Positions 982-16,265 of a stretch of 64,000 bases of DNA are shown here, piece by piece. Numbering within the stretch: the first letter of the stretch is position 1; every line of letters starts with the position of its first letter. Origin of the DNA: an uncultured Candidatus Saccharibacteria bacterium (GTDB taxonomy: Bacteria > Patescibacteriota > Minisyncoccia > UBA6257 > 2-01-FULL-56-20); assembly GCA_964530925.1 (NCBI GenBank), contig CAZHBZ010000002.1, forward strand, positions 3,621-67,620, read 5' to 3'. The notes beneath the pieces are model-generated. The model saw only the letters and a program-made list of their open reading frames with translations. It was not told the DNA's origin and searched no databases. A program made the position numbers and the translations under genes.

Positions 982-2028
982 CTAAAGAGATGTTTTAGTG
1001 ATTTTAAGAGAACGCCACCTGGATTGACCTTCAAACTCCCCCCTCTTTAAAAGTCCATCCTGAGCTCCAAACGATTCCACCTTGGAAGTGGCATTCGCGG
1101 ACGCGAGCCTAATCGCGCGCTCAATAGTTTCCGCGGAGAAAGAGGCCACTCCATTTTTGGTTTCGGATTTAGCCTTCATAAGACCGGCGATAAACCCGCT
1201 TCCGAAAGCGTCTCCGGCCCCGGTCCTATCCGCCATCTTTTTTTCTTTATAGATTCCGGCGGAAAATATATTTTCTCCGTCAGAAACAAGAACTCCCCTC
1301 CTGCCATCGGTCATGACCGCTACTCCATCCACAAGTTCGTCTAATTTACGGAATATTTTTTTCTCGTCTTCGTATTTCACCCCGGTGAGATACGAGGCCT
1401 CCTCCCTGTTCATAATGACCACATCCAATCGACTAAGAATCGGCTTCAGTTGTTTCGCCCCGAGCTCGATATAATACCTCGAAGGATTCATCGCTATCCT
1501 GGCCCCTTGGCTTTTTAGGTGAGCGACGAGGAGCGAGATAACAGAAAAAGGAATCCTTCCCGGAACGATATAGGCCCAGCGCGCTTTTAATTTTTTAAAT
1601 GGAACTTCCTGCTTTGAAACCTCCTCCGAAGCTCCGCGATAATTTAAAATTGTTCTCTCCCCCCCCGCGGTTAAAAGCACCACCGAAAAAGCGGTTCCTT
1701 TGTCGGCGGAAAAAAGAGGAACCGCGGTTATTTTTTCCTTTTTAAACTCCGAAAGTATCGCCTCGCCCGCGTCATCTTCGCCAATCTTCACAAGCGCTCC
1801 GGTCTTATATCCCTGTCTCGCAAAAGTGACCGCGGCATTGGCCGCGCCTCCCCCACAAGCGACAACAGGTTCCCCAACTTCTATTTTCCCGCCCAAAGCG
1901 AAACATTCCGCTTCGCCAGTCTTGAATCCGAGTTTTTCCAAATGCTCCGGGTCCCGCAAAACCTTAAAAGCGTCGCTTTTAACGAAAACGTCCCGGGTCG
2001 CCGTGCCAATGGTTAAGATATCGAACAT
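982..2028 (-). CDS. PfkB-family carbohydrate kinase (ribokinase-like)
   Basis: N-terminus MFDILTIGTATRDVF..., anion-hole GG, C-terminal GAGDAF motif typical of the ribokinase/PfkB fold. Confidence 0.85.
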   Translation of the reverse strand: MFDILTIGTATRDVFVKSDAFKVLRDPEHLEKLGFKTGEAECFALGGKIEVGEPVVACGGGAANAAVTFARQGYKTGALVKIGEDDAGEAILSEFKKEKITAVPLFSADKGTAFSVVLLTAGGERTILNYRGASEEVSKQEVPFKKLKARWAYIVPGRIPFSVISLLVAHLKSQGARIAMNPSRYYIELGAKQLKPILSRLDVVIMNREEASYLTGVKYEDEKKIFRKLDELVDGVAVMTDGRRGVLVSDGENIFSAGIYKEKKMADRTGAGDAFGSGFIAGLMKAKSETKNGVASFSAETIERAIRLASANATSKVESFGAQDGLLKRGEFEGQSRWRSLKITKTSL

Positions 2029-2103
2029 TGGATTAAGTATACAAAAAAACCGCCCAATGGAGAACCTGGGGGCGATCTTTCTTCTTTTTTGCGCCTTATA
2101 GCC

Positions 2104-3093
2104 CTACTTCCTTCTCAAAACCTTTTTTACTGCCGCCTTAATATGCTTCGCGGTCATCCCATACTTTTCCAAAAGTTCGGAAGATGAGCCGGATTCCGCA
2201 AAGACATTTTGCAATCCAACAAATTCCATAGGAACCGGATTATGTTTTGCCAAAAGCTCCGCGATTGCTCCTCCGAGTCCTCCGGATATCTGGTGCTCCT
2301 CGACGGCAACGATTGCCCCGTATTTTTTCGCTAATTCCAAAATTTTCTTTTCATCCAGAGGCTTAACGGTGTGGGAATTCAGAACCACAGTTCCAATTTT
2401 TTCTTTTTCGAGCTCCTTCGCGGCGAGAATCGCCTCGTAAAGCAAAGCTCCGCAACCAATTATTGCCACTTGCGGACGCTTGGATTGCCAAAGGACAATG
2501 GCTTTACCGGGAACGAACGGAGTTTCTTCCGTGGTAAAAACCGGAGTCTTCTCCCGCTGGAACCTCAAATATACCGGACCCCAAATCTTTGCCGCGACCA
2601 AAGTCGCCTTGCGGGCCTCAATGGAATCGCAAGGGACGATAACTTTCATGTTGGCCATCACCCTCATGGTCGCGATATCTTCCACCGCTTGGTGGGTCGC
2701 TCCGTCCGGACCCACGGAAATACCCGCGTGATGTCCGGCAATTTTTACATTGGAATCGTTATAAGAAATAGTGGTGCGAATCTGTTCCCAATTTCTGCCC
2801 GGAGAAAAAGTGGCGTAAGAAGAGATGAAAGGAATCTTGCCGGAAGTTCCAAGCCCCGCGGCGATGGTCGCCAGGTTCTGCTCCGCCACGCCAACCTGGA
2901 AAAACCTCTCCGGAAATTTTTTGGCAAAAGCTTCGGCCCGGGTAGATTCCGTAAGGTCGGCCGAAAGCGCGACCACGTTCTTGTTTTCCTCTCCGGCCAA
3001 AACCAACCCGTCGCCATAGCCGTCTCTAGTCGGCTTTTGGAGAACGTCTTTATCGAATATCTTCCCGCTTAATTTTGCCTCCGGATTTAACAT
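2104..3093 (-). CDS. transketolase, C-terminal (pyrimidine-binding) subunit
   Basis: 329 aa with conserved transketolase Pyr/C-terminal domain blocks (FQVGVAEQNL..., GPDGATHQAVEDIA...); lies next to the N-terminal subunit gene. Confidence 0.9.
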   Translation of the reverse strand: MLNPEAKLSGKIFDKDVLQKPTRDGYGDGLVLAGEENKNVVALSADLTESTRAEAFAKKFPERFFQVGVAEQNLATIAAGLGTSGKIPFISSYATFSPGRNWEQIRTTISYNDSNVKIAGHHAGISVGPDGATHQAVEDIATMRVMANMKVIVPCDSIEARKATLVAAKIWGPVYLRFQREKTPVFTTEETPFVPGKAIVLWQSKRPQVAIIGCGALLYEAILAAKELEKEKIGTVVLNSHTVKPLDEKKILELAKKYGAIVAVEEHQISGGLGGAIAELLAKHNPVPMEFVGLQNVFAESGSSSELLEKYGMTAKHIKAAVKKVLRRK

Positions 3094-3097
3094 TTAA

Positions 3098-3589
3098 TTA
3101 TATTTTCTTAGCTTTATACCCTAGAATCAACCTTCGGATTATCAGAATAATTCCCGCTCCAAAGAGAACGAGGCCTATCCATTCTCCGCCAAAAATGTAA
3201 AACAGCATATAAGTCGGATATGGCAGTACGCCAAGGGACGGAGTAAAATATAACGCTGCTCCTAAAAAGAGCAGCAAAACCCCGATTACCAGAGAAGCAT
3301 TACCGGTCTTCACGGTAAGAGAATTGTCGACTGACTCACCAATCCCCTGTTCGGTTTCAAGTTTTTTGAATTTACGTTTCAAGAAAAATCCCGAAACCAC
3401 CAAAAGGACCGAAAGACCCATAAAACTGCCCAAAATCGTATAATAAGCAGCCGGACCACCCGTTTTTGCTCCGAAACCGAGATCCATGGCCCCGGTAAAA
3501 AGAGCGATCACCGGCGCTAGAACCAAGGATATTACAAGCAAACCAAAACCGAGCCACATTAGAAAATTCGCTATTTTTATGTTTTTCAT
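3098..3589 (-). CDS. hypothetical polytopic membrane protein
   Basis: 163 aa, four or five hydrophobic helices, no recognisable motif. Confidence 0.6.
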   Translation of the reverse strand: MKNIKIANFLMWLGFGLLVISLVLAPVIALFTGAMDLGFGAKTGGPAAYYTILGSFMGLSVLLVVSGFFLKRKFKKLETEQGIGESVDNSLTVKTGNASLVIGVLLLFLGAALYFTPSLGVLPYPTYMLFYIFGGEWIGLVLFGAGIILIIRRLILGYKAKKI

Positions 3590-3602
3590 TTTATTTATTA
3601 TT

Positions 3603-3645
3603 CTCTACCTGCTACTCACTACTTACTACCCACTACCTAACTGCG
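3603..3645 (+). repeat. CTAC-repeat element (CTCTACCTGCTACTCACTACTTACTACCCACTACCTAACT) between the tktN stop and the membrane-protein gene start
   Basis: G-free tract on plus (GTAG-rich in minus mRNA sense); same submotifs as the other family members. Confidence 0.5.
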
Positions 3646-3646
3646 C

Positions 3647-4507
3647 CTACTGGTGTTCGCTTTTAATTTTTCCGGCCAGCGTCCGAAGCTCTTTTAGCGC
3701 AATCTTCGCCTCCTCCGGCTTTGGCGGCTTGCCGTGCCAAGTGTAGTCGTTTTCCATAAAATCCACACCCCTCCCCGGAATCGTGTGCGCGATTATCATT
3801 GTGGGTTTTTCATAAATTGCTTTCGCCTCCGCGCAGGCGGAAATTATCTGATGAAAATCGTGTCCGTTAATTTCCAAAACATGCCAGTTAAAAGCCTCGT
3901 ATTTTTTCCGCAGGGGCTCCAGGGGCATAACCGATTCCGTCACGCCATCAATTTGAATGTTATTCCGATCCAAAATGGCCGTGACATTTGAAAGCCTATT
4001 TTTACCGGCGAACATAATGGCCTCCCAAGTATTCCCCTCCTGGTGCTCCCCATCAGACATCAAACAATAGGTGCGATACTTTGCCTTGTCTAATTTTGCC
4101 GCGAGCGCGAACCCAATAGCCTGGGAAAGGCCAGAGCCAAGCGGTCCCGAAGTTGTCTCTACTCCCGGCAACGATCCGCGATGCGGGTGTCCTTGAAGCC
4201 TTGTTCCTAGCTGTCTTAAGGTTTTAAGTTCCGCCGGCGGGAAATATCCGGCCCGGGCAAGCGTTGCGTAAAACACGGGACAAATATGGCCGTTTGAAAG
4301 CACCACCCGGTCCCGCCCATCCCAATTCGGTTTTTTAGGCTCATGATTCAAAATGTGAAAATAAAGGGCGGTAAAAACATCCGCCATTCCCAAAGGTCCA
4401 GCGGAATGCCCGGAGCCGGCAGTCACAAGCATCTTTATAATATCCTCGCGTATCTGCGTGGCTTTCTCTTCCAAAAATTTCAATTTATCGTCGTGAAGCG
4501 CTTCCAT
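3647..4507 (-). CDS. transketolase, N-terminal (TPP-binding) subunit
   Basis: 286 aa with GSGHSAGPLGMAD... and GHPH... TPP-binding motifs of the transketolase N-domain; split-gene arrangement with the C-subunit gene. Confidence 0.9.
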   Translation of the reverse strand: MEALHDDKLKFLEEKATQIREDIIKMLVTAGSGHSAGPLGMADVFTALYFHILNHEPKKPNWDGRDRVVLSNGHICPVFYATLARAGYFPPAELKTLRQLGTRLQGHPHRGSLPGVETTSGPLGSGLSQAIGFALAAKLDKAKYRTYCLMSDGEHQEGNTWEAIMFAGKNRLSNVTAILDRNNIQIDGVTESVMPLEPLRKKYEAFNWHVLEINGHDFHQIISACAEAKAIYEKPTMIIAHTIPGRGVDFMENDYTWHGKPPKPEEAKIALKELRTLAGKIKSEHQ

Positions 4508-4551
4508 GTAGATTGATTATAACATACCCTCGGTAGCTATTTTCACGCGGG

Positions 4552-5208
4552 TTACGCCGCTAACAATTCTTCGTAAGCGATTTTCGGATCTTTAGCCTCA
4601 AAAATAAATGACGCGGAAATAAGTATATTTGCGCCCGCCGCTTTCACGGCCCTCGCGGTTCCCAAATTGATTCCTCCGTCCACCTCAATATTTGCTTTTG
4701 GAAAACTTTCCCGCAGAAATCTTATTTTTTCTAAAACTATCGGCAAAAAAACCTGGTCCGGCAATCCTGGATAGACTGCGAGTATTTGATATTCGGAAAA
4801 TCTTTTAAAATATTCCCGCCCCATTTCAAGCCTCGTTTCCGGAGAAAAGGCGAGCATCATTTCCACGGCATGCTCTTTGCCAAACTTTTCTATCTCTTCC
4901 GCGGCCTCCGAGGAAAGTGTTTCGGCGTGAACGATAATTCGCTCCGCTCCCGCTTCTATCCAATCCATAATTTGCTTTTCCGGTTCTTCGACCATCAAAT
5001 GGACTTCCAGTTTTAATTTGGAGTTCAAAGCTTTCCATTCCTCGGGCGAACCCCAGGTCTTGTTAAACGTAAATCTGCCGTCGGCTATATCCAAATGGAT
5101 CCAGTCGGAAAACCCTTTGGCTACTCGCGCTCTTTCCCGGGCGCATGCCAAGTCTTTGAAGCGGCAGTTAAGAGAAGGTATGACCTCCATTTGTGATAAT
5201 TTTAGCAC
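4552..5208 (-). CDS. rpe: ribulose-phosphate 3-epimerase
   Basis: IHLDIADGRF..., VDGGIN..., (beta/alpha)8 Rpe signature; the track start at 5208 is GTG; an alternative ATG start at 5190 gives MEVIPSL... Confidence 0.85.
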   Translation of the reverse strand: MLKLSQMEVIPSLNCRFKDLACARERARVAKGFSDWIHLDIADGRFTFNKTWGSPEEWKALNSKLKLEVHLMVEEPEKQIMDWIEAGAERIIVHAETLSSEAAEEIEKFGKEHAVEMMLAFSPETRLEMGREYFKRFSEYQILAVYPGLPDQVFLPIVLEKIRFLRESFPKANIEVDGGINLGTARAVKAAGANILISASFIFEAKDPKIAYEELLAA

Positions 5209-5223
5209 ATTGCGGGACTAAAA

Positions 5224-5240
5224 CCCCCGCGAACGCGGGG
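5224..5240 (-). terminator. GC-rich hairpin (CCCCCGC-GAAC-GCGGGG) followed by GUUUUAG in minus sense; putative intrinsic terminator
   Basis: Perfect 6-7 bp GC stem with a 4-nt loop and a U-rich 3' flank on the minus strand; it overlaps the stop of CDS 5247-5579. Confidence 0.4.
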
Positions 5241-5246
5241 TGTGCT

Positions 5247-5579
5247 TCAGTCTGCCGGGATAACCCGATAATCGCCATTGCGATTTTTCAATATTTTTAT
5301 TTTTTCTCCCTCCCTGGCCCCGAGACGGCAGATATTTTTTGCTACGCACATCTTCCCGTCTTCAAAATATATGGCCAAAGCGCAAATCCTTTTCTGTCTT
5401 TTGAAAACCCAGAAATTCGTGGAGTAGCTAAAATGCATATGCATATATTTCTTTAGTTCCCCTTCGGCCACAAGCGAATAATCCGGTTTGCGACGCATAT
5501 ATCTTGCCAAGGAACTGGCTAGAAGTGAAAAGAGCACGAAGACCGGCAACCAAAGCCGATCCCAGGGAACGCTCCTCAT
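5247..5579 (-). CDS. hypothetical protein with N-terminal membrane anchor
   Basis: 110-aa ORF with one N-terminal transmembrane segment; no recognised domain. Confidence 0.5.
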   Translation of the reverse strand: MRSVPWDRLWLPVFVLFSLLASSLARYMRRKPDYSLVAEGELKKYMHMHFSYSTNFWVFKRQKRICALAIYFEDGKMCVAKNICRLGAREGEKIKILKNRNGDYRVIPAD

Positions 5580-5625
5580 TCTCCACCTCCGACGCGAGCT
5601 AATATAAATTATATACTACGCGCTC

Positions 5626-5647
5626 GAAAAAACGCCCGTCCGGGCGT
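5626..5647 (-). terminator. intrinsic terminator downstream of the glutaredoxin-like gene
   Basis: AAAAAACGCCCG-tc-CGGGCGTTTT: GC stem flanked by A- and T-runs (bidirectional); minus sense reads stem then UUUUUU. Confidence 0.6.
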
Positions 5648-5654
5648 TTTCCAA

Positions 5655-5906
5655 TTAAACCTCTTTGAATATCTCGCGCAAACGCTCCCGATGATAGCCC
5701 ACAAGCAATTCGTCTTCTATTTCTATGACCGGCACAACTTTCGCTCCGGATTTTTTTATCATCTCCTCCCTCGCCGCCATATCCCGGGAAACATCTTTTT
5801 CTTCATAGGCCACACCCCTAACGCCAAAGAAAGACTTCGCCATCCGGCAATAAACGCAGGTCGGAGTGGTGTAAAGAGTAATCTTCTTCATAGCTTTATT
5901 ATACAC
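5655..5906 (-). CDS. glutaredoxin/NrdH-like thiol-disulfide oxidoreductase
   Basis: 83 aa, N-terminal CVYC active-site motif in a thioredoxin-fold context (ITLYTTPTCVYCRMAK). Confidence 0.8.
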   Translation of the reverse strand: MYNKAMKKITLYTTPTCVYCRMAKSFFGVRGVAYEEKDVSRDMAAREEMIKKSGAKVVPVIEIEDELLVGYHRERLREIFKEV

Positions 5907-5914
5907 CTCTTGGC

Positions 5915-6151
5915 TCAGGATATTTCAATCGTTTTTTCCTTGGATTTTACGCCAGAGACAAGCCGCACCCGGCCCAACCCTACGCCGAAATGCCGGGCAA
6001 TAGCCTCCAAGACCGCGAAGTTCGCCTTGTTTTCTTTGGCTGGTTCACGCACCCAAACCGCGAAGGTATTGCTCCCCAAGTCTTCAATCTTTTCCTGCTT
6101 CGCTCCAGGTTTAACTTTTACAGTTATCCGCATTTTATTCGGGGCTAACAA
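5915..6151 (-). CDS. DUF167 (YggU-like) family protein
   Basis: 78 aa; VKVKPGAK...E......VWVREPAKENKAN pattern typical of DUF167. Confidence 0.65.
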   Translation of the reverse strand: MLAPNKMRITVKVKPGAKQEKIEDLGSNTFAVWVREPAKENKANFAVLEAIARHFGVGLGRVRLVSGVKSKEKTIEIS

Positions 6152-7382
6152 TAACGGTCACGAACCGCTCGGGTTTAAGATATTTCGCGCGCAGAGCTTC
6201 GGCATCCGCGAGCCTGGACTTCTCTAAATATCTTTTCATCTTCTTGTACACTCCGGGAACATCTTTAAGCGTTTTCCCGGTCATCAGCCGTTCCCAAACA
6301 AAACCCTCCCAAACCCCAAGATCGTTATCATCCTCAAGGCTCACGGCATCCAAAGCTCTCTCCCGCGCGTCCGCGAAAGCCTTCTTATCGGTAAGCGGAA
6401 TATTGATAAGCCTCTTCATGAGCGCTTCAACCTTCGAAACATTTCCTGGCTTCGTTTCCGCGTAAAAATAAATATAACTGCCGAGCCCGGCGGCGGATGA
6501 AACCGACCCGCCAACGGCGTAAGCCAAGCCACGCTTTTCCCGTATCTCCCGATAAAGCCTGGAATTGCCTCCGATCATTAAAAGCCTTCCAAGGAGCGAT
6601 GAAGCCGCGTCATCTTTGTCGGAAATATCAAAAGGAATTTTGGCCGCCATCATAACTATGGCTTTGTTCCTTTTTGGTTTTTTTATCTCCACCCTTTCTG
6701 TCATCGGCGGAAGATCCAACTCCTCATCCCATTTTTCGTGGCGCAATTCCCCCCTCTTCATCGGAAAATTTTTATTGACGATCTTAACCAATTCCGCGTG
6801 CGCCAATTTCCCGGCGGCGAAAACAAGCGTGTTCGCGGGGATGTGCCATTTTCCTTTAAGTTCCAAGAGATCCTTTCGGGAGATATTTTTCATCCCCTCT
6901 TCCGTCCCGACGCCCTCCCTCCGCATTGGGTTGACCCGCCAAAGGGATTCGCGAATGGCCCGATGAGCGAGGTAATAATCCTCGTCATAATTCCTGGCGC
7001 GTTCTAGGAGAACCGCGTTTTTTTCTTTCTGTAATTCTTTCGCCGGATAAGTTGAGTTCAAATATATGTCGCAGAGGAAATCCACAATTAGCGGAAGTTT
7101 CCTCGCGACACCGGTGCCGTAATAGTCCACGGAAAGCCTGGCGGTCGAAGCGTTGGATCCCAGAAAGTTTTTGGCTTTGAATTCGGCAATATCTCTCGCG
7201 CTCCTTTTCTTCGTCCCCTTAAAGGCCATATGTTCGAAAAAGTGGGATAGCCCGGACTTGTCCTCCGGGTCGTACGCGAATCCGGCCATGCAAGTCACGG
7301 TCACATAAACCTTCCTTTCCGTCGGAATGCCCGCCGAGATTATCCTGAGCCCATCTTTGCGAATTGTTTCTTTTAATTCCAT
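6135..7382 (-). CDS. M16-family zinc peptidase (insulinase-like)
   Basis: Inverted zinc-binding motif HFFEHMAFKGT (HxxEH) near the N-terminus; 415 aa with two M16 domains. Confidence 0.85.
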   Translation of the reverse strand: MELKETIRKDGLRIISAGIPTERKVYVTVTCMAGFAYDPEDKSGLSHFFEHMAFKGTKKRSARDIAEFKAKNFLGSNASTARLSVDYYGTGVARKLPLIVDFLCDIYLNSTYPAKELQKEKNAVLLERARNYDEDYYLAHRAIRESLWRVNPMRREGVGTEEGMKNISRKDLLELKGKWHIPANTLVFAAGKLAHAELVKIVNKNFPMKRGELRHEKWDEELDLPPMTERVEIKKPKRNKAIVMMAAKIPFDISDKDDAASSLLGRLLMIGGNSRLYREIREKRGLAYAVGGSVSSAAGLGSYIYFYAETKPGNVSKVEALMKRLINIPLTDKKAFADARERALDAVSLEDDNDLGVWEGFVWERLMTGKTLKDVPGVYKKMKRYLEKSRLADAEALRAKYLKPERFVTVIVSPE

Positions 7383-7451
7383 AGTTTAATTATAACCCAG
7401 ACCAGGACCGCCTGTCTTTTTATAAGAGGCCCAGAAGACTATAATTTTTTT

Positions 7452-8066
7452 ATGAAGAAGTTCCCGGCAAAATACAGAAAGGATTTCGCCGTCTTCGAGA
7501 AACTCATCACTCCCGCGAAAGTCCAGGATTTTATAAACAAGATCCCGATAAATTTTGAACCCCAAGGCGAGACCTGCCGCTCTCCCCTTTCGACCCTCAA
7601 AGCCAAGCGCGCCCATTGCCTCGAAGGGGCGTACCTCGCCGCAGCCGCGCTCTGGTTTCACGGACACGAACCCTTGCTCTTGGATCTCCGAACCGTCCCC
7701 CGAGACAGCGACCATGTTGTCGCCCTGTTTAAAGAATCCGGCCGCTGGGGCGCGATAAGCAAAACCAACCACGCGGTCTTGCGATATCGGGAACCGGTCT
7801 ACGCTTCCGTCCGGGAACTTGCCATGTCCTATTTCCACGAATATTTTTTGGATGATGGCAAAAAAACCATGCGGGATTATTCCGCTCCATTTAGCCTTTT
7901 GAAATATGGAGATAATTGGCTTGTCTCCAAAAAGAATCTTTGGGATATAGGCGCAGACCTGGACGACTCCAGGCATTTCGGGATACTCCCCAAAAACTTA
8001 CGCTTGCGCCCAGCGGACAAAGTAGAAATTGAAGCGGGGAAAATCACGGAGTGGAAAAGGAGATAG
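7452..8066 (+). CDS. hypothetical protein, possibly transglutaminase-like (Cys-His-Asp) fold
   Basis: 204-aa ORF; spacing of Cys (RAHCLEGAYLAAAAL), His (DHVVALF) and a downstream Asp resembles the transglutaminase-like core; a minus-strand ORF at 7386-7976 overlaps it and is judged spurious. Confidence 0.55.
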   Translation: MKKFPAKYRKDFAVFEKLITPAKVQDFINKIPINFEPQGETCRSPLSTLKAKRAHCLEGAYLAAAALWFHGHEPLLLDLRTVPRDSDHVVALFKESGRWGAISKTNHAVLRYREPVYASVRELAMSYFHEYFLDDGKKTMRDYSAPFSLLKYGDNWLVSKKNLWDIGADLDDSRHFGILPKNLRLRPADKVEIEAGKITEWKRR

Positions 8067-8087
8067 ATTTGTCGGGATGGACCCCGG

Positions 8088-8849
8088 CTACATCAAAATT
8101 GTTTTTATAATTTCCAGAATATCGTGCTTGTGATTGTCGGACAAAACACCAAATATCTTCAAAACTTCCAAAAAGACTTTAATGTTGCTTTCTGTGATTT
8201 CGAAATAGGCCACTTCTTTCGCGCTGGCAACTCGCCCAATTAAATTACTTTCCGCCTTAAGTTCCGAAATCGGAAAACACAGATACAGCATTGGCTGAAT
8301 TCCTACCGCATACTGCTTCTCGGTAATTTTTATTTCGGTAACAATCTCATACCCGTTAAATTTATGGATTAAAAGAGGATATTTAACCTGAGTATATTCA
8401 AAATCAAATCCGTTTATATTTTTCGCTATCGGATGACTGCGATCAATTTGCAATTCGGAATTATTGCCAATCAAATTATTACTTGGAATCGAATCAAGAT
8501 AATCAACAACGGCTTCTAAGTCCTCCCCAGAAATAATCCCCCATTTATAAAAGTGCCAAATATATTCAGATAGCTCATAAAGCGCCTTGGTTTTCCCGTT
8601 CGCACCCGTAAATTGCGTATCCGGCAATGACGATTCCGAAAGTTTTTCGGCTTCCGCCTTAACGACGTCATAACCAATCTGCCATTCGACATAATTGCTT
8701 AAAGCAAATCCATCCCTCCTAACCGCAACAGGCGTTCCATATTCATTTAAAATTGAACGGTTCTTAATGCGGATTTTCCCACTAACAGCAGTTAGCAAGA
8801 TTGGGACTTCAATTTTATGCTCTTGTTGTTTAATTAAAATTTTTGGCAT
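8088..8849 (-). CDS. hypothetical protein; candidate restriction endonuclease partner of the adjacent methyltransferase
   Basis: 253 aa, no recognised family; overlaps the MTase gene by 20 nt on the same strand; AT-rich like the MTase gene; possible degenerate nuclease-like patch IDRSHP...FDFEYTQVK. Confidence 0.45.
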   Translation of the reverse strand: MPKILIKQQEHKIEVPILLTAVSGKIRIKNRSILNEYGTPVAVRRDGFALSNYVEWQIGYDVVKAEAEKLSESSLPDTQFTGANGKTKALYELSEYIWHFYKWGIISGEDLEAVVDYLDSIPSNNLIGNNSELQIDRSHPIAKNINGFDFEYTQVKYPLLIHKFNGYEIVTEIKITEKQYAVGIQPMLYLCFPISELKAESNLIGRVASAKEVAYFEITESNIKVFLEVLKIFGVLSDNHKHDILEIIKTILM

Positions 8850-10002
8850 ATTTTTCGCCTAATTTGCTTCCAAGTAATTCCCTAAAATAGTTATCTATTT
8901 TCGGCTTGGCATCTGGAATTTCCCTAAAATTAAATTTATTTCTTAGGACTGGATTTGTGTGTACGCTTTGGGCGATAAAACATTCTTTAATTTCATTGAA
9001 CTTCTCATTATCGATGATCACATCGCAATTTCCAAGGAAATAGGGCACTTTATCCGCGTATTGTTTGAAGACGTCAATATAACAATAATATGGCAGTTTT
9101 TCCATTAGCACATAGACGGTATTGTAAGTGTCGGAGTCAATAAACGTTCGATTGCGTTTGAGCGCGTTTATATCCCTAAGTGTCCAAAACTTTGCTATTG
9201 GCTTATCGTTTTTATTTAAAAATTTTTTATTCGGATACTTTTGGACATAATTGACTACAGTATCAAAATCGCTTAAACGGAAAAGCCCATCATCTTTTAC
9301 TTTAAACTGATAATTTTGGATATAATCGTAGGTCATCCCTTTCTGATCTTTTTCGTAAAGGGCAATTAAAATCGGGAAGGCCATTCCACGAGACGTATCG
9401 GAAAACTCGTGACTACTTATGATTATTCCATCGATTAATTTATAGTTTTGGGAAAATTTTGAAAGTAAGGCAAAATTGGCTTTTTTAATTAAATAAGACA
9501 AGGGGTGTAAAACACAAACGTAGTCTGCCCCTAATTTATCATAAGAAAGCAAGAACGACATTCCCAGGTCCCTGGTTTTTATATCAGAATCAATCCCGTT
9601 TTGAACAGAAGTGTCTTTTATAGAATTACGAATTATGGATGTAGTGTCGTTGTATGGCGGGTTGCCTATGGCTATAAGTTTTTCTTCGCCCCTTATGGCT
9701 AAATTATCGCGACAAACATTCGAAAGAGAATTTTGGTGAATAAAATTCGCGCCGCTAATTGTTTTTTTTGCTTCAAAAATAGCCTTTTGATCGATATCCG
9801 CCCCCACAAATCTTTTCGCGACCCCTCCCCTTGCCAAAAATGATCCGTAGCCGCAAGACGAATCTAAAATTGTAAAGTCTTTAAGGTTCGTGATGTTTTT
9901 TCGCAAAATGGAATAGGCCAGATCAACAATGGTCTCTGGCGTGTAATAAGAGCCGAGATTGATAGTGTCGGCGTAATTTAGGTGTTTCTGATTCCTGTCC
10001 AT
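8830..10002 (-). CDS. gamma-class DNA methyltransferase (N6-adenine or N4-cytosine) with C-terminal target-recognition domain
   Basis: YYTPETIVDLAYSIL (as in Eco57I/TaqI-like gamma MTases), motif I ILDSSCGYGSFL, motif IV IGNPPY, followed by about 200 aa of TRD. Confidence 0.85.
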   Translation of the reverse strand: MDRNQKHLNYADTINLGSYYTPETIVDLAYSILRKNITNLKDFTILDSSCGYGSFLARGGVAKRFVGADIDQKAIFEAKKTISGANFIHQNSLSNVCRDNLAIRGEEKLIAIGNPPYNDTTSIIRNSIKDTSVQNGIDSDIKTRDLGMSFLLSYDKLGADYVCVLHPLSYLIKKANFALLSKFSQNYKLIDGIIISSHEFSDTSRGMAFPILIALYEKDQKGMTYDYIQNYQFKVKDDGLFRLSDFDTVVNYVQKYPNKKFLNKNDKPIAKFWTLRDINALKRNRTFIDSDTYNTVYVLMEKLPYYCYIDVFKQYADKVPYFLGNCDVIIDNEKFNEIKECFIAQSVHTNPVLRNKFNFREIPDAKPKIDNYFRELLGSKLGEKYAKNFN

Positions 10003-10041
10003 CTGGGTTCATTATACCAGTTTTCAGGTCTCAATAAGAAT

Positions 10042-10074
10042 AAAAAACGGCGCCCGCGAAGGGTGCCGTTTTTT
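10042..10074 (-). terminator. bidirectional intrinsic terminator between tRNA-Ser and the MTase gene
   Basis: AAAAAACGGCGCCCGCGAAGGGTGCCGTTTTTT: 9-bp GC-rich stem (one G-T) flanked by A6 and T6; directly 3' of the tRNA on the minus strand. Confidence 0.65.
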
Positions 10075-10079
10075 GCTAG

Positions 10080-10164
10080 CGGAGGGGGAGAGATTCGAAC
10101 TCTCGGTACCTTGCGGTACGCCACCTTTCCAAGATGGTGCACTAGACCACTATGCGACCCCTCC
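10080..10164 (-). tRNA. tRNA-Ser (anticodon GGA), type II with long variable arm, CCA not encoded
   Basis: Manually folded: acceptor GGAGGGG/CCCCTCC, D-arm GCA-TAGTGGTCTAG-TGC, anticodon stem CCATC/GGTGG with loop TTGGAAA (anticodon GGA), 17-nt variable arm, T-arm GAGAG-TTCGAAT-CTCTC, discriminator G. Confidence 0.85.
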
Positions 10165-10347
10165 AGGGTCTCGGCCACCAGTAAAATCTAAGCTAAATCC
10201 TAAAAATTTACAACCCGCGAAGCGAGCTTCTAAATTCTACTTTTCCCGATATCGGTTACGATATCGAGGATCCTCGATTTTGTAGCGCAAATAAATTCGC
10301 GGACAAAATCGGGGCTACTTCCTACATTCCGGACTCTGCGTTTTATT

Positions 10348-10364
10348 TTCTACTACTTACTATG
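10348..10364 (+). repeat. short CTAC-repeat element (TTCTACTACTTACTATG) abutting the TPM gene stop
   Basis: Same submotifs; low complexity. Confidence 0.3.
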
Positions 10365-10367
10365 TTT

Positions 10368-11297
10368 TCACCATCCCCCGCTTGCGCCTCCTCCGCCGGA
10401 ACGTCCGCCGCCGAAACCCCCGAACCCTCCGCCGCTGTGACTTCCTCCGCCAAACCCGCCAAAGCCTCCGCCGCCTCCAAGCCAGGGGCCTTTTCCGCCG
10501 CTGTCCTTCCACATCTTATAGCTTTTAGAAACGAGAAAATCGAAAAGCGCGCCAAAGCCTCCTAAGAAAATAATTATTAAAATCCGCCAGACCATCCCGC
10601 CTATCCAAAGCCAAAGCAAAAGACCCAAGAGTCCGCCCAGCACTCCCCCGAGCCACCAGGACTTTGTCCGCCCCAAAAAGATCGCGAATATTCGCAGGAT
10701 CAAAAACGGAATAAAAATAAATATCCAGCCACCGTTGGAGAATAAAAGCTTCATTATCCAAGAATCCTTTAGTTTCTCGCCGCTTTCGGAAAATCCCGCC
10801 TCGCTTTTTACGGCCAAAACAATATCGTCCACCGCCAAGTTCAATCCTTTATAGTATTCCCCCTCTTTAAAGGCCGGAACAATATCCTCGTTTATTATTT
10901 GCGCGCTTTGTATATCCGTTAGCGCTCCCTCAAGTCCATATCCGGTTTGAATGCGCGCCTTTCTGTCTTCCAAAGAGACCAGGACGAGCGCTCCGTTGTC
11001 TACTTTTTCTTTACCGATTTTCCAAGTATCGAATATTTTTTGCGCGGCATTTTCGATCGTGTCGCCATTCAAGGATTTTACGGTCACCACCGCTATTTCT
11101 ATTGTTGTCGTGGCATTAAAATCCCTGAGTTTCAATTCCAGGGCGGAAACTTCTTCCGCGCTCATCATTCCCGCGAAATCGCTCACGAACCCTGCGGGTT
11201 TTTCGGGGACAACAAAAGCCGCGAGCGAAGCTCGCGGCGAGATTGCGACCGCGAGCAAAAGGAAAGTGAATGCCTTAAGGGCGGTCTTCATCTTCAA
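10368..11297 (-). CDS. TPM-domain (TLP18.3/Psb32/MOLO-1) protein with signal peptide, C-terminal TM segment and Gly-rich tail
   Basis: Signal peptide, then the TPM domain (DFAGMMSAEEVSALELKL...ALVLVSLEDRKARIQTGYGLEGALTD), a TM segment and a GGFGG repeat tail; ends in a TGA stop. Confidence 0.8.
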   Translation of the reverse strand: MKMKTALKAFTFLLLAVAISPRASLAAFVVPEKPAGFVSDFAGMMSAEEVSALELKLRDFNATTTIEIAVVTVKSLNGDTIENAAQKIFDTWKIGKEKVDNGALVLVSLEDRKARIQTGYGLEGALTDIQSAQIINEDIVPAFKEGEYYKGLNLAVDDIVLAVKSEAGFSESGEKLKDSWIMKLLFSNGGWIFIFIPFLILRIFAIFLGRTKSWWLGGVLGGLLGLLLWLWIGGMVWRILIIIFLGGFGALFDFLVSKSYKMWKDSGGKGPWLGGGGGFGGFGGGSHSGGGFGGFGGGRSGGGGASGGW

Positions 11298-11303
11298 TTT
11301 AAA

Positions 11304-11858
11304 TTAGAAAGCGACTTTTGGGGCAGTCTCCGCTCCGGAAGCCGCCTTGAAAAGTTCCCTCGCGTCGAACCCGAAAATACCGGCGGCAATATTCGACGGG
11401 AATCTCTGAACTTTTACGTTCAAGACGCCAACCGCGTCGTTGTAGCGTTGTCTTTCGACCGCGATACGATTCTCGGTTCCCTCAAGCTGGGTCATAAGAT
11501 TTTGAACAGTGGCGCCGGAAGTAAGCTGCGGGTAATTTTCCATTATCACCAAAAGTCTGCCGAGCGCGCCCTCGACTTCGCTAGCCGCGGACGCCTTCTC
11601 ATTCACGCTCTGCGCTCCCGCGTATCTTGTCCTCGCTTCGGATATAGCGCCGAATACTTCTTTTTCCTGCGTCATTATCCCCTGGACGGACGCGACCAAA
11701 TTCGGGATAAGGTCAAATCTCCTTTGAAACTGCGACTCTACCTGGGACCACTGAACATCCACCGCGGTATTCAAAGAGACAAAGCTGTTATAGCTCATCC
11801 AAAGATATCCGCCGACCACTACAACTATCGCAAGCGCTATCCAAAGTGTTTTTTTCAT
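11304..11858 (-). CDS. LemA-family protein
   Basis: N-terminal TM segment plus the conserved LemA blocks (YNSFV.L...V...WSQVESQ.QRR.DLIPNLV, ...RQRYNDAV); forms the conserved LemA-TPM gene pair. Confidence 0.85.
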   Translation of the reverse strand: MKKTLWIALAIVVVVGGYLWMSYNSFVSLNTAVDVQWSQVESQFQRRFDLIPNLVASVQGIMTQEKEVFGAISEARTRYAGAQSVNEKASAASEVEGALGRLLVIMENYPQLTSGATVQNLMTQLEGTENRIAVERQRYNDAVGVLNVKVQRFPSNIAAGIFGFDARELFKAASGAETAPKVAF

Positions 11859-11907
11859 ATTTTTTTGTTGGTTTCTGATTTCTTTGATTATACCCTAAAC
11901 CCATATT

Positions 11908-11958
11908 TTTAAAAGAAAAGCCCCGACTTGGCCTGCTGACAGCAGGCAGGGTCGGGGC
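11908..11958 (-). terminator. intrinsic terminator downstream of thyX
   Basis: GCCCCGAC...(inner hairpin CCTGCTGACAGCAGG)...GTCGGGGC with a U-rich flank (UUUUCUUUU) in minus sense. Confidence 0.55.
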
Positions 11959-11970
11959 GAGTGCTAGACC

Positions 11971-12702
11971 TTACGATTGACAGTTTTGTACCACGGATGT
12001 CCGTCCACGATCTCCACTTCGTAATCGGCAAAGATATTCGGATATCTCTTCTTCGGCTTCAGGGGCTGTTCGCATCTCAAGGCAATGGCGCAGAGCGCGA
12101 AGGTTTGCGCTCCATCCGATAGAAGTTGCGAGTCCGAGCGGCGCGACACGCCGGAAAGCGGAGGTGAGCTTTTTCTTTTCGGCAAAACTCTTTTTCTCCG
12201 CGATATTCGCCGCCTCGGCCAGATTCTTCTGCACGTCTTCGAGAAGCCCGACCACATTGGTCATGATCGTCATAACCTCCGGCGTTTCTTGGATCACTGT
12301 CGGAACCCAGAAACCCAGCTCGGTCAGACGCACATAACGCAAACTTTCCTGAGATATCGCAGTCCCTGCCCGGTGGCGCACCAACTCATGAGTGAACACC
12401 CGGCTCACGCCAGCGAAAACGAAATTCACATTCGCGTGCTCGAGGACGGAACCGTGTTTCACATTCACGATGTTCTGAATGTAATCGACGTTTCCTTCGC
12501 GCACCTTGGTCACATTCGGATTGAGACCCGGAGCAAAACTCCGGTAGCAAATCCGGCCCATAACCTCAGTCAGCTCTTCCGCGTCGGAAGGGGCATCGCT
12601 TTTCCATTCCGGAGCACCGACGTATTCGAGATAGGCCTCTAGACCTTCGTGATTCAGGGTCGTTTCTCCCAAGAGAAAGACCTTCGGTTCTACGATTTTC
12701 AC
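11971..12702 (-). CDS. thyX: FAD-dependent thymidylate synthase ThyX
   Basis: ThyX motif ELVRHRAGTAISQESLRY (RHRxxxxxxxS); GTG start at 12700-12702 preceded by AAGGAGG Shine-Dalgarno. Confidence 0.85.
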   Translation of the reverse strand: MKIVEPKVFLLGETTLNHEGLEAYLEYVGAPEWKSDAPSDAEELTEVMGRICYRSFAPGLNPNVTKVREGNVDYIQNIVNVKHGSVLEHANVNFVFAGVSRVFTHELVRHRAGTAISQESLRYVRLTELGFWVPTVIQETPEVMTIMTNVVGLLEDVQKNLAEAANIAEKKSFAEKKKLTSAFRRVAPLGLATSIGWSANLRALRHCLEMRTAPEAEEEISEYLCRLRSGDRGRTSVVQNCQS

Positions 12703-12746
12703 TTAATCCTCCTTCTTTTCTTTCGTGGGGCTGCCTTCAACCTACT

Positions 12747-12782
12747 AAAAACCGCTCCGTTTGTCTACGGAACGGTTTTTGT
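12747..12782 (-). terminator. intrinsic terminator downstream of groEL (bidirectional A-run/T-run flanks)
   Basis: AAAAACCGCTCCGTttgtctaCGGAACGGTTTTT: interrupted GC stem with A5 and T5 flanks. Confidence 0.6.
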
Positions 12783-12793
12783 TATTCTGTTCC

Positions 12794-12816
12794 CGCTACC
12801 CACTACTCACTATCTC
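12794..12816 (+). repeat. short CTAC-repeat element (CGCTACCCACTACTCACTATCTC) abutting the groEL stop codon
   Basis: Same CTAC/CCAC/TCAC submotifs; lies between the groEL stop and its terminator. Confidence 0.4.
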
Positions 12817-14466
<1,650 letters not shown>

Positions 14467-14490
14467 TTTTTCCCAAGAGCGAAGCGATTG

Positions 14491-14544
14491 GCTGAAAAAA
14501 TGAGCACCCCGCCGGAATCGTCAGATGTAGGCGGGGCCGCCTAC
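14491..14544 (-). promoter_or_regulatory. attenuator-like element in the groES-groEL intergenic region: two mutually exclusive hairpins, the distal one terminator-like
   Basis: mRNA sense: GUAGGCGG-cc-CCGCCUAC (perfect 8-bp stem), then CCCCGCC...16 nt...GGCGGGG followed by UGCUCAUUUUUU; the CCCCGCC arm is shared, so the two hairpins exclude each other. Confidence 0.4.
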
Positions 14545-14616
14545 GCTTCACAAAATATTTTTATTCGACTTATTTTTTGAAATTAGTAATTGGAAATTAG
14601 GATTTGCAATTTTGGA

Positions 14617-14907
14617 CTACTCCAAAATTGCCAGAATATCCTCCTCCTCCCCGACCAGATATTTCTTCCCCTCCACCTCCACTTCGTCCGGCCCGTATTT
14701 TTTAAAAAGAACTTTATCCCCGACCTTCACGGACATCGGCATCCTTTCGCCTTTTTCGTTAAATTTGCCAGGGCCCACAGCGACAACAGTTCCCATAACC
14801 GGTTTTTCTTTCTCGGCGGTCTCCGGCAAAACAATACCCGACTTGGTGGTCTTTTCTTCAGAAAGAGCTTCTATAAACAAATGATTTGATAGCGGCTTTA
14901 ACGTCAT
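14617..14907 (-). CDS. groS: co-chaperonin GroES (10 kDa)
   Basis: 96 aa; MTLKPLSNHLFIEALSEEKTTKSGIVLP... canonical GroES. Confidence 0.95.
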   Translation of the reverse strand: MTLKPLSNHLFIEALSEEKTTKSGIVLPETAEKEKPVMGTVVAVGPGKFNEKGERMPMSVKVGDKVLFKKYGPDEVEVEGKKYLVGEEEDILAILE

Positions 14908-15020
14908 TGTTATAAGTTATTTGTTATTAGTTTTACTTACTAGCAATCCCGACCTTCGTCTGCTAATGATAGTAAGAATTTTTTTTAAAGGCAAGCGTGT
15001 TCTGCTCGCCCCCGGAAGAC

Positions 15021-15050
15021 ACAAAAATACCGCTTTCAGCGGTATTTTGC
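15021..15050 (-). terminator. intrinsic terminator downstream of trxB (perfect palindrome ATACCGC-tttca-GCGGTAT with A/T flanks)
   Basis: AAAAATACCGCTTTCAGCGGTATTTT; minus-sense stem followed by UUUUU. Confidence 0.7.
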
Positions 15051-15071
15051 ATTTTTCTTAGGCCTTTAAGC

Positions 15072-15992
15072 CTATCCCTTCACAAGTTTGTCGTAGATAT
15101 TAAGCGCAGCCTTAATCGCGTCTCCGGCGGAAGTGTTGTTCTGCTTATAAAGCGCGTCAGACACGTCTCCGGCCGCCCAAATACCGGGGTTCGAGGTCGC
15201 CTGGGTTTTGGGATCGGCTATCACCTCCCCTTTAGCATTGATATCCGCCAATCCTTTAACGATTTCCGAATTCGGCAACGCCCCCACCTCCACAAACACA
15301 CCGCTGACCTTCAATTCTTTTAATGTTCCTTCCTTGCGATCTTTATAGCGCAATCCGGTCACAAAATTATCGCCCAAAATTTCTTCGGTATCCGCTTGGG
15401 TTATTATTTCCACCTTCGCATTTGAGGAAACCTTTTCGAGCGTGACCGGATCCCCTTTCGGCCCCTCGGAGCGGACTACTAGATATATTTTTTTTGCGTA
15501 TGGGAAAAGATCCACCACCGCCTCAAGTCCGGCATTGCCTCCGCCTATTACCGCCACCTCCTTATCTTTAAAGAGCGGCGCGTCGCAGATCGAGCAAAAG
15601 ACTACTCCTTTGCCGTCGTATTTATCCTCGCCCGGCACGCCAAGGCGCTTTCGCCGGCTCCCCGAAGCAAGCAGAATATATTTCGTTTCAAAACTTTTTC
15701 CGCCGCTCGTCGCTACCTTAAACCCGCCCTCCGTTTGTTCAATTTTTTCCGCGCGCTCGCCTTCTTCAATTTCGATACTGCCGTCAAAAGAACGCAGATG
15801 GTTTTCCATCGACTTTGCGAGGTCGTAGCCGGAAATAGACGGACTTCCTATCCAATTTTGGATATCTGCGGAAACCACCGATTGTCCGCCGAAGCTTTCG
15901 ACGATTATTAACGTTTTAATTTTTTTTCTGGCTGCGTATATTCCCGCGGCAATTCCCGCAGGTCCACCACCAATGATAATGAGATCATACAT
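15072..15992 (-). CDS. trxB: thioredoxin-disulfide reductase
   Basis: MYDLIIIGGGPAGIAAGIYAAR (FAD binding), redox-active CSICD, second Rossmann GGGNAG; 306 aa. Confidence 0.93.
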   Translation of the reverse strand: MYDLIIIGGGPAGIAAGIYAARKKIKTLIIVESFGGQSVVSADIQNWIGSPSISGYDLAKSMENHLRSFDGSIEIEEGERAEKIEQTEGGFKVATSGGKSFETKYILLASGSRRKRLGVPGEDKYDGKGVVFCSICDAPLFKDKEVAVIGGGNAGLEAVVDLFPYAKKIYLVVRSEGPKGDPVTLEKVSSNAKVEIITQADTEEILGDNFVTGLRYKDRKEGTLKELKVSGVFVEVGALPNSEIVKGLADINAKGEVIADPKTQATSNPGIWAAGDVSDALYKQNNTSAGDAIKAALNIYDKLVKG

Positions 15993-16097
15993 GGTAATTA
16001 GTTAGTAGTTGGTCGTAGGTAGCAAGTGGTTAATATGGGAATGGAATCCACGGTTCTGGACGCATCACGACTAACGACAGACGATCTACGACTTACT
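15993..16097 (-). repeat. inverted pair of CTAC/CGAC/TAAC repeat elements (GT-rich arm 15993-16031, CA-rich arm 16062-16097) between the SPW gene stop and the trxB start
   Basis: GTCGTAGGTAG...GTTAGTAG on one arm and CACGACTAACGACAGACGATCTACGAC on the other; could form a long interrupted RNA stem; member of the window-wide repeat family. Confidence 0.6.
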
Positions 16098-16265
16098 TTC
16101 TTTATCCTCCTTCTCCCCAAACAGCTCCCAAGCAAAAGCCACAGCCAAGACCAATCCCGCGATAACCGAGCTCCACTTAGCGAGAGATATCCCGTCAAAG
16201 CCCAAAAGCCAAGGAGAAACGATGAGCCAAACCCCAAGACCAAAAGCTATCCAAGAAGAGTTCAT
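16086..16265 (-). CDS. SPW-repeat family small membrane protein
   Basis: 59 aa from the internal ATG (MNSSWIAFGLGVWLIVSPWLLGF...); two TM helices with the SPW motif. Confidence 0.6.
   Translation of the reverse strand: MNSSWIAFGLGVWLIVSPWLLGFDGISLAKWSSVIAGLVLAVAFAWELFGEKEDKESKS

Follow-up and report, generated by a model that had tools for sequence, protein, structure and literature searches.

Restriction enzymes that act as DNA glycosylases are rare exceptions. Members of the PabI family, the HALFPIPE superfamily, remove a base at unmethylated GTAC and make no direct cut in the DNA backbone. The portions of PMC4357717 and PMC5059719 used here describe GTAC as the sequence recognised by R.PabI of Pyrococcus abyssi and N6-methyladenine (m6A) as protective, and the former cites HpyAXII of Helicobacter pylori as restricting DNA with unmethylated GTAC. 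In the portions of two family reviews on which we draw (PMC4615327; PMC10273834), restriction glycosylases are placed in a few thermophiles and in Campylobacter and Helicobacter, and bacteria of the candidate phyla radiation (CPR) go unmentioned; a full-text search combining PabI and CPR returned nothing relevant. Here we describe a locus of this family in a 64,000-nucleotide (nt) stretch of contig CAZHBZ010000002.1, hereafter the window. With a probability of about 0.88, segment 8058-10078 represents a two-gene PabI-family Type II restriction-modification (R-M) cassette in a Parcubacteria-like CPR bacterium, made up of a methyltransferase gene and, overlapping its 3' end, a gene for a restriction protein of 253 residues. 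Judged by its two proteins the system is an uncharacterised member of the known PabI family, not a new kind of system.

The restriction protein and its methyltransferase partner

The 253-residue protein, for which the initial annotation found no recognisable family, matches the Pfam profile PF09522 (R.Pab1) from its first position to its last (E = 2.9e-45, 153.7 bits against a cut-off of 25, profile positions 1-119 of 119), and this is its sole Pfam match at E <= 0.1. The PADLOC model REase_II also matches (E = 3.4e-19), and NCBIfam holds no model for the protein. A phmmer search of the PDB aligns residues 11-252 with 7CFA, R.CcoLI of Campylobacter coli (E = 4.1e-57), and finds R.PabI in 2DVY at E = 5e-16, with 2DVY, 3WAZ and others at E of about 1e-15. 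R.CcoLI is the best match in both sequence and structure, with 48% identity in our alignment A1, whereas identity to R.PabI is only about 27-34%. When an AlphaFold model of the protein is compared with the PDB by Foldseek, all 11 matches at E <= 0.001 are R.CcoLI or R.PabI (7CFA, 3WAZ, 2DVY, 6L2N, 6L2O and 5IFF; E from 1e-13 to 3e-8, TM-score 0.50-0.69); the next has an E of 0.13, and no nuclease fold occurs among the matches of the model.

The residues on which catalysis and base recognition depend are also kept, with one exception in base recognition (Tyr180, below), as judged by placing the roles given in PMC7806768 on HMMER and MAFFT alignments. The glycosylase triad is present as Y60, H240 and D243, invariant in alignments A1 and A2 and equivalent to Y68, H211 and D214 of R.PabI and to Y52, H222 and D225 of R.CcoLI (PMC7806768). 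K88 corresponds to Lys71 of R.CcoLI, the lysine of the apurinic/apyrimidinic (AP) lyase activity, and its neighbours N84 and D61 to Asn67 and Asp53. As in R.CcoLI, this lysine is carried by a mesophile-type β-sheet insertion, here 9 residues longer (residues 67-75); R.PabI is a weak AP lyase because it has no such insertion pointing a lysine into the active site. All ten predicted base-contact residues of R.CcoLI (PMC7806768) are identical in the window protein, where they fall at K25, R27, E55, Q57 and Y189 (guanine), Q185 and M187 (thymine), I58 and F233 (adenine) and Q179 (cytosine). R27 and E55 are at the same time the equivalents of the guanine-recognising Arg32 and Glu63 of R.PabI.

By homology, then, the 253-residue protein is a PabI-family (HALFPIPE) restriction DNA glycosylase and AP lyase, and not a phosphodiesterase of the PD-(D/E)xK, HNH or GIY-YIG type. 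The initial annotation had placed the cognate endonuclease at this position; the assignment of a cognate restriction enzyme stands, but endonuclease gives way to glycosylase and AP lyase. A confident non-nuclease fold, which it would have counted, alongside solitary methyltransferase homologues elsewhere, as grounds to reject the pair, would have misfired as a guide because the restriction enzyme itself belongs to a glycosylase family. The exact proteins of the pair are already in public databases, without names, and close homologues of the 253-residue protein are auto-annotated there as 'R.Pab1 family restriction endonuclease'. The lesson for annotation is that the restriction gene is an ordinary, database-recognisable member of the R.Pab1 family.

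The upstream open reading frame (ORF) follows the motif order of gamma-class methyltransferases: motif X (YYTP, in YYTPETIV at residues 19-26), motif I (DxxCGxGxF, as ILDSSCGYGSFL at 45-56), motif IV (NPPY, in IGNPPY, at 114-117) and a C-terminal target-recognition domain, with about 270 residues after motif IV. It matches PADLOC MTase_II (E = 1.7e-86) and, above the cut-off, Pfam N6_Mtase (24.9 bits), with weaker Eco57I-methylase and MTS matches. NCBIfam gives a sub-threshold match only, and a sequence search of the PDB returns only generic S-adenosylmethionine-dependent methyltransferase folds (best E 0.003).

Its pairing with the restriction protein is recurrent. A homologue-alignment scan with one genome per GTDB species found homologues of the restriction protein in 242 genomes. 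Of 80 loci fetched from these, 77 also encode a methyltransferase homologue, whose gene almost without exception directly precedes the restriction gene in the same orientation; in the other three the contig ends at the restriction gene. The loci include Helicobacter cinaedi, H. muridarum, H. canis and a Campylobacter, whose methyltransferases are 45-47% identical to that of the window (E about 1e-102), over the full length in the Helicobacter loci. The restriction proteins of the Helicobacter loci, which belong with HpyAXII to the same bacterial lineage of the family, are 50-52% identical to the window protein. Aligned pairwise with the recognition domain included, the window methyltransferase shares 46% identity with the H. 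cinaedi partner (E = 2e-114) and 49% with a partner on a conjugative C. coli plasmid (E = 7e-104), the latter encoded upstream of an annotated 'R.Pab1 family restriction endonuclease'. In the portions of PMC4615327 used here, Kojima and Kobayashi treat H. cinaedi and H. muridarum as PabI-family loci and describe, for the bacterial lineage of the family, a methyltransferase gene that precedes the restriction gene in the same orientation, which is the order seen in the window. The methyltransferase is thus predicted to be a gamma-class N6-adenine DNA methyltransferase, a bacterial-lineage homologue of M.PabI, with GTm6AC as its product. The compact Type II pair with a gamma-class methyltransferase, as first proposed from its motifs and the 20-nt overlap of the two ORFs, is borne out by the ORF table and by the PabI-family partner.

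Set beside the described systems, the window pair shares with CcoLI and its plasmid-borne Campylobacter relatives the order of methyltransferase and then restriction gene on one strand. The genes of CcoLI-type loci are separated, however, whereas those of the window overlap, and the Campylobacter relatives lie on a conjugative plasmid whereas the window cassette is chromosomal, beside a tRNA gene, in a CPR host. The Helicobacter loci belong to a different phylum and to other insertion sites, being long-term orthologous loci or parts of defence islands, and the portions of PMC4615327 used here make no mention of a linkage to tRNA-Ser for them. With R.PabI (2DVY, 3WAZ) the window protein has the HALFPIPE fold and the triad in common, but the archaeal PabI genes stand tail to tail, and the same portions of PMC4615327 raise the possibility that the archaeal and bacterial methyltransferases are not orthologues.

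Locus layout and sister genomes

The two ORFs overlap by 20 nt (8830-8849), and the methyltransferase gene starts 76 nt from the 3' end of a tRNA-Ser(GGA) gene, which faces it (Table 1). Both genes are AT-richer than their surroundings, as the initial annotation had remarked. GC content is 0.34-0.39 over 8000-9750 against about 0.46-0.54 on either side (500-nt windows), and gene by gene the pair has a GC content of 0.36-0.37 and a GC content at third codon positions (GC3) of 0.38, compared with 0.50-0.53 and 0.55-0.61 in six neighbouring genes.

The spacer between tRNA and methyltransferase gene (10003-10082, 80 nt, read on the minus strand) folds at -24.1 kcal/mol (z = -3.4), and none of 200 shuffled sequences is as stable. 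Its A6-stem-U6 hairpin looks like a bidirectional intrinsic terminator. The initial annotation had seen such a terminator as all that separates the pair from the tRNA; the hairpin is upheld by the fold, but a putative extended -10 promoter element lies in the spacer as well. A consensus promoter and terminator scan flagged neither the hairpin nor the -10 element, the hairpin being missed because of one mismatch in its stem. Given the distance of the -10 element from the methyltransferase ATG, the methyltransferase mRNA would be near-leaderless.

Table 1. Positions of features in the window and in related loci
Feature	Sequence	Coordinates	Strand	Basis or remark
Methyltransferase ORF	window	8830..10002	minus	390 aa; gamma-class motifs
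Restriction-protein ORF	window	8088..8849	minus	253 aa; start overlaps methyltransferase 3' end
tRNA-Ser(GGA)	window	10079-10164	minus	ARAGORN; Rfam RF00005 10080-10164, 52.8 bits
A6-stem-U6 hairpin, directly after tRNA	window	10042..10074	minus	RNA fold
Putative extended -10 element TGGTATAAT	window	10011..10019	minus	read from sequence; ends 8 nt 5' of methyltransferase ATG
Right junction	window	8058..8087		similarity to sister contig L084 resumes at ~8057, in the last codons of the 204-aa gene (7452-8066, plus)
GIY-YIG gene	L017	4404-4700
GIY-YIG gene	L017	4045-4278
GIY-YIG gene	L011	4411-4647
GIY-YIG gene	L032	146-385
GIY-YIG gene	L034	4858-5091
GIY-YIG gene	L041	11287-11499

These arrangements recur in a close CPR clade of relatives (77-86% protein identity, ~77% nucleotide identity), found in metagenome-assembled genomes (MAGs) labelled as many CPR groups. 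Most members share the length of 253 residues, the 20-nt overlap is kept throughout, and the pair nearly always has a lower GC content than its flanks. At the nucleotide level, similarity to the window extends from 22-49 nt 5' of the methyltransferase ATG to the stop codon of the restriction gene. The leader can be aligned between loci from about -45 to -1, and TGnTATAAT stands 6-10 nt 5' of the methyltransferase ATG in most loci of the clade.

The host itself is a Parcubacteria-like CPR bacterium: the closest named relatives of the window GroEL are Liptonbacteria, Colwellbacteria and Paceibacterota (72-81% identity). Sister contigs were found by a metagenome-contig search with the protein of the convergent neighbouring gene, which has 204 residues and neither a Pfam nor an NCBIfam match; at least 537 metagenome stretches encode relatives of it, the best 80 being 54-87% identical. 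The sister contig L084 is 93% identical to the window in GroEL, 96% in ThyX, 91% in LemA and 87% in the 204-residue protein, and carries in order an M16-peptidase gene, the 204-residue gene, tRNA-Ser(GGA), TPM, LemA, ThyX and GroEL; methyltransferase and restriction gene are absent from it. A shorter contig, L085, shows M16-peptidase gene, 204-residue gene and tRNA-Ser in the same order and likewise lacks the pair. About 650 nt of unrelated sequence take the place of the pair in both.

Comparison with L084 fixes the edges of the window-specific segment, which the initial annotation had considered uncertain. The tRNA-Ser(GGA) genes of window and L084 are identical at all 86 nt, and the two sequences diverge from the first base after the tRNA (10078). 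At the other end (window 7950-8100 compared with L084 2950-3100) they reconverge at about 8057. The C-terminus of the 204-residue protein reads ...EWKRR* in the window and ...EWKKNRNTKRKLIRAIHALPKK* in L084, a difference that coincides exactly with the edge of the R-M segment. This makes the window-specific segment 8058-10078, or 2,021 nt, with its left boundary at 10078 and its right at ~8058. It holds the two R-M genes only, and no integrase is among its ORFs.

Different sequence stands behind an identical tRNA in L084, so the same site holds alternative cargo. This cargo opens after the tRNA with a terminator hairpin that is different from, and not homologous to, that of the window. It also includes, at L084 3068-3487 (minus), an ORF of 139 codons that has no Pfam match and whose product carries a hydrophobic N-terminal segment. 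Between the tRNA and this ORF, within L084 3516-3690 (minus), lies a tRNA-like stretch of ~105 nt. It begins with the 5' strand of the acceptor stem of that tRNA (GGAGGGGT) and ends in 16 nt that repeat the tRNA tail; neither ARAGORN nor Rfam recognises it as a tRNA.

Together, the sister comparison and the foreign GC3 support an insertion, or a replacement of cargo, at the 3' end of tRNA-Ser(GGA), the direction of the event being inferred. The horizontal acquisition beside tRNA-Ser that the initial annotation proposed thereby gains in support from the GC3 contrast and the pair-free sister genomes. Its failure to find a direct repeat of the tRNA 3' end around 8070 is also confirmed, in that a search of window 2000-16100 (~6-8 kb on each side) allowing up to 4 mismatches per 20 nt finds no copy of the tRNA 3' end.

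Specificity, origin and integrity of the pair

Several observations weigh against reading this segment as an acquired, GTAC-specific PabI-family cassette. The AlphaFold model of the restriction protein is of moderate confidence only (pLDDT 64, pTM 0.72) because its alignment is shallow (25 close homologues), and the weight for the half-pipe fold is therefore carried by sequence homology. The window protein, like 90% or more of the CPR clade, has a tyrosine (Tyr180) in place of an arginine (Arg156 in R.PabI, Arg159 in R.CcoLI); Arg156 is reported to be important for GTAC recognition by R.PabI (PMC5059719), so specificity or affinity could differ. The avoidance of GTAC in the 64-kb window is modest (observed/expected 0.72 under a maximal-order Markov expectation, z about -2.7, second most under-represented of the 256 tetranucleotides), with TGCA, CTAG, GGCC and GATC about as depleted. 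Lastly, loss or replacement in the lineage of L084 would produce the same outcome in the sister comparison as an arrival in that of the window.

The first question these points raise is whether the family is right but the CPR clade reads a sequence other than GTAC, through the exchange of arginine for tyrosine in the β8-β9 loop and a diverged recognition domain in the methyltransferase, which is only 46-49% identical to partners from the characterised lineage. The identity of all ten predicted base contacts argues against such a change. Since the statistic from the window alone is too weak, a pooled comparison of carriers and controls was added, using the same expectation on flanks from which the R-M genes had been removed. 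GTAC is the most depleted of the 16 palindromic tetranucleotides in the flanks of CPR-clade carriers (337 kb, observed/expected 0.62, z -8.1) and in those of more distant family members (285 kb, 0.32, z -15), but is mid-table in CPR control loci chosen via an unrelated gene (514 kb, 0.94, z -2.3); the window without its cassette (62 kb) gives 0.73 (z -2.5), second of the 16. These values lend indirect support to GTAC as the target of the CPR clade despite Tyr180, and the avoidance in carriers supports a real restriction pressure over evolutionary time. A different recognition sequence accordingly seems unlikely, although of all the alternatives it fares best.

The codon for residue 180 lies at about 8310-8312 on the minus strand, and one clade member, P0120, retains Arg at this position. 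GTAC is not the only palindrome avoided in the window: TGCA (observed/expected 0.64), CTAG, GGCC, GATC and TCGA fall below expectation as well (z -2.6 to -5.4), which hints at other restriction systems, past or present, pressing on the window lineage.

The second question is one of history, namely whether the pair was ancestral at the locus and the L084/L085 lineage lost it and gained the 139-codon ORF. In favour of this, the window has neither a direct repeat of the tRNA end nor an integrase, and synonymous sites of both genes are saturated against all relatives, so no sampled donor is a very recent source of the pair. An ancestral pair does not, however, sit well with a GC3 of 0.38 among neighbours at 0.55-0.61, nor with the distant relatives of the 204-residue neighbourhood (L086-L163), in which there is no match to the methyltransferase or the restriction gene. 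The gene contexts of the other 77 methyltransferase-bearing loci are unrelated: all-against-all clustering of flank ORFs finds no family besides the R-M pair in more than 9 loci, the commonest being spurious ORFs inside the R-M genes. Ancestral presence followed by loss is thus improbable, slightly more so than a change of specificity, and arrival or cargo replacement in the window lineage is the reading we retain.

It could also be asked whether the restriction gene is a decaying remnant beside a methyltransferase that alone is functional, as is frequent in Helicobacter; Kojima and Kobayashi, in the portions of PMC4615327 used here, report that R.PabI homologues are frequently disrupted. In the window, by contrast, the ORF is full-length at the usual 253 residues and its functional residues are intact. 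Both genes of the pair are under strong purifying selection, with a ratio of nonsynonymous to synonymous substitution rates (dN/dS) of 0.02-0.07 against eight relatives, and the GTAC avoidance of carriers implies restriction pressure, all of which leaves decay very unlikely. A position downstream of and overlapping the methyltransferase gene, typical of any Type II restriction gene, would also suit a classical Type II system whose 253-residue partner is an unrecognised PD-(D/E)xK, HNH or GIY-YIG phosphodiesterase. Such a system is scarcely credible, since PF09522 is the only Pfam match, R.CcoLI aligns over the full length, Foldseek yields no nuclease fold and the glycosylase triad and AP-lyase lysine are kept.

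The PabI-family cassette that we favour would work as follows. Going by the sequence, both genes would be transcribed from the extended -10 promoter, with the restriction gene translationally coupled to the methyltransferase gene through the overlap and no control protein involved. Going by the biochemistry of R.PabI, R.CcoLI and R.HpyAXII, the methyltransferase would make N6-methyladenine in 5'-GTAC-3', and the restriction protein, bound to DNA as a dimer via its half-pipe surface, would excise adenine where GTAC is unmethylated. Lys88, in its β-sheet insertion, would then form a Schiff base at the abasic site and break the strand by β-elimination, and two opposed lesions would yield a double-strand break whose ends resist religation. 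Having arrived immediately downstream of the native tRNA-Ser(GGA), or displaced other cargo there, the cassette may act as a defence module, an addiction module or both.

Placement beside tRNA-Ser genes

Furuta, Abe and Kobayashi (2010; PMC2853133) described two mobile forms of R-M systems to which this placement can be compared: a unit of R-M genes and an integrase in a tRNA gene, and an insertion of R-M genes alone with a long target duplication. The window shares with these forms a two-gene R-M unit of foreign composition adjoining a tRNA gene, and two related loci add repeats of 29 and 20 nt (L054 and L011). Unlike them, the window has no integrase and no repeat, and the repeats of L054 and L011 fall under the 30-bp threshold for long target duplications. 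The placement is related to the mobile forms of 2010 but differs from them.

The position beside a tRNA-Ser gene is not peculiar to the window. In 12 of 78 loci (L006, L007, L011, L012, L014, L015, L017, L030, L038, L054, L055 and the window) ARAGORN places a tRNA-Ser on the strand of the methyltransferase gene and no more than 600 nt upstream of it, with anticodons TGA, GCT, CGA and GGA and the pair 28-540 nt downstream. This upstream zone makes up 5.7% of the flank sequence and holds 13 of the 20 tRNA-Ser genes found, together with only three other tRNAs (Ala, Trp and Gly). A binomial test on 12 of 15 gives p of about 1e-9, to be taken as an indication only because the loci are not independent samples. 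Some of the events are clearly independent, since L012 and L014 share the array tRNA-Arg/tRNA-Ser(GCT)/tRNA-Ser(TGA) and carry the pair after the GCT gene in one and after the TGA gene in the other.

Several of these loci also contain exact repeats (13-29 nt) of the tRNA-Ser 3' end. In L054, from an Oscillospiraceae MAG, a 29-nt exact repeat (4625-4653 and 7018-7046), which consists of the last 19 nt of the tRNA and 10 further nt, encloses the pair. The corresponding repeat of L011 is 20 nt long (4301-4320 and 6932-6951) and encloses a small GIY-YIG gene together with the pair. A copy of the tRNA tail stands between tRNA and methyltransferase gene in L015 (4709-4730), L017 (4709-4721) and L038 (4575-4592), and in L015 and L017 a conserved leader of ~120 nt has this copy at its left edge. 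The intact tRNA and the tail copy of L017 are separated by a GIY-YIG cassette.

These arrangements suggest a route of insertion directed to tRNA-Ser without an integrase, and the placement resembles site-specific integration at tRNA 3' ends by a unit that carries no integrase. We put forward only tentatively, as a doubtful possibility, that the PabI-family pair of CPR bacteria and at least two Oscillospirales genomes is a minimal, integrase-less cassette that repeatedly comes to lie precisely at the 3' ends of tRNA-Ser genes of any anticodon. In such a scheme an att-like copy of the tRNA tail would be used by a recombinase supplied in trans or, alternatively, the cassette would ride with small GIY-YIG gene cassettes at the same site. 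The pattern may instead come from a small number of old insertions passed on by vertical descent, or from selection for intergenic sites that are permissive and transcribed.

Stand-alone GIY-YIG genes of 79-99 codons (Pfam PF01541, E about 1e-14) occur beside tRNA-Ser in related loci (Table 1), those of L011 and L017 lying between the tRNA and the R-M pair; the window has no such small gene. These GIY-YIG genes may be homing-type cassettes that use the same tRNA-Ser site. Inside L011 there are also two tail-like copies whose sequence departs from that of the host tRNA, as though one cassette after another had been added.

As to the vehicle, the clustering of flank ORFs shows no recurrent integrase in the flanks of related loci. 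Carriage by phages was considered and dropped, as no relatives of the restriction protein occur in IMG/VR viral contigs or GenBank phages, and carriage by plasmids is seen in Campylobacter only.

Several contigs of low GC content that carry the CPR-clade pair (L018, L019, L020, L022, L023, L032, L035 and L044) come from MAGs with doubtful labels, namely Gammaproteobacteria, Bdellovibrionales, Verrucomicrobiota, Pacearchaeota or Woesearchaeota. A transfer from bacteria to archaea, which the labels 'Pacearchaeota' (L035) and 'Woesearchaeota' (L044) would imply, was rejected: L035 has an ORF that by eye looks LexA-like, and the MAG labels look unreliable, so that they offer no ground for assuming transfer between domains.

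Behind the restriction-gene stop codon, subsets of the related loci carry one of two unlike conserved non-coding sequences, 60-190 nt long, neither of which is in the window. One, class A, reads 'ggcggcgcgccagNNNNctggcacgaaattcggcgg...gcgagggcggg' and occurs in L014, L022, L024, L027, L034, L025, L032 and L041; the other, class B, reads 'aataaggagttttgGattttgggcattcacccctaacccctctgcccaaaatc' and occurs in L005, L009, L018, L019, L028, L029 and L033. Rfam, run on the window segment and eight related loci, finds tRNAs only and matches neither class.

With the 242 species genomes, the window reveals a large and tightly conserved PabI-family clade in ultrasmall CPR bacteria. What is new here is modest and comes as side observations, namely a large CPR clade with a footprint of GTAC avoidance and the repeated placement at tRNA-Ser. 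The clade offers mesophilic enzymes whose recognition loop naturally has Tyr in place of Arg, a module for defence or addiction that bears on DNA uptake by CPR bacteria and a possible route of cassette mobility directed by tRNA-Ser. If that route is real, the tails of tRNA-Ser genes would be a docking site shared by small cargo, such as the R-M pair, the GIY-YIG genes and the 139-codon ORF, in these tiny genomes.

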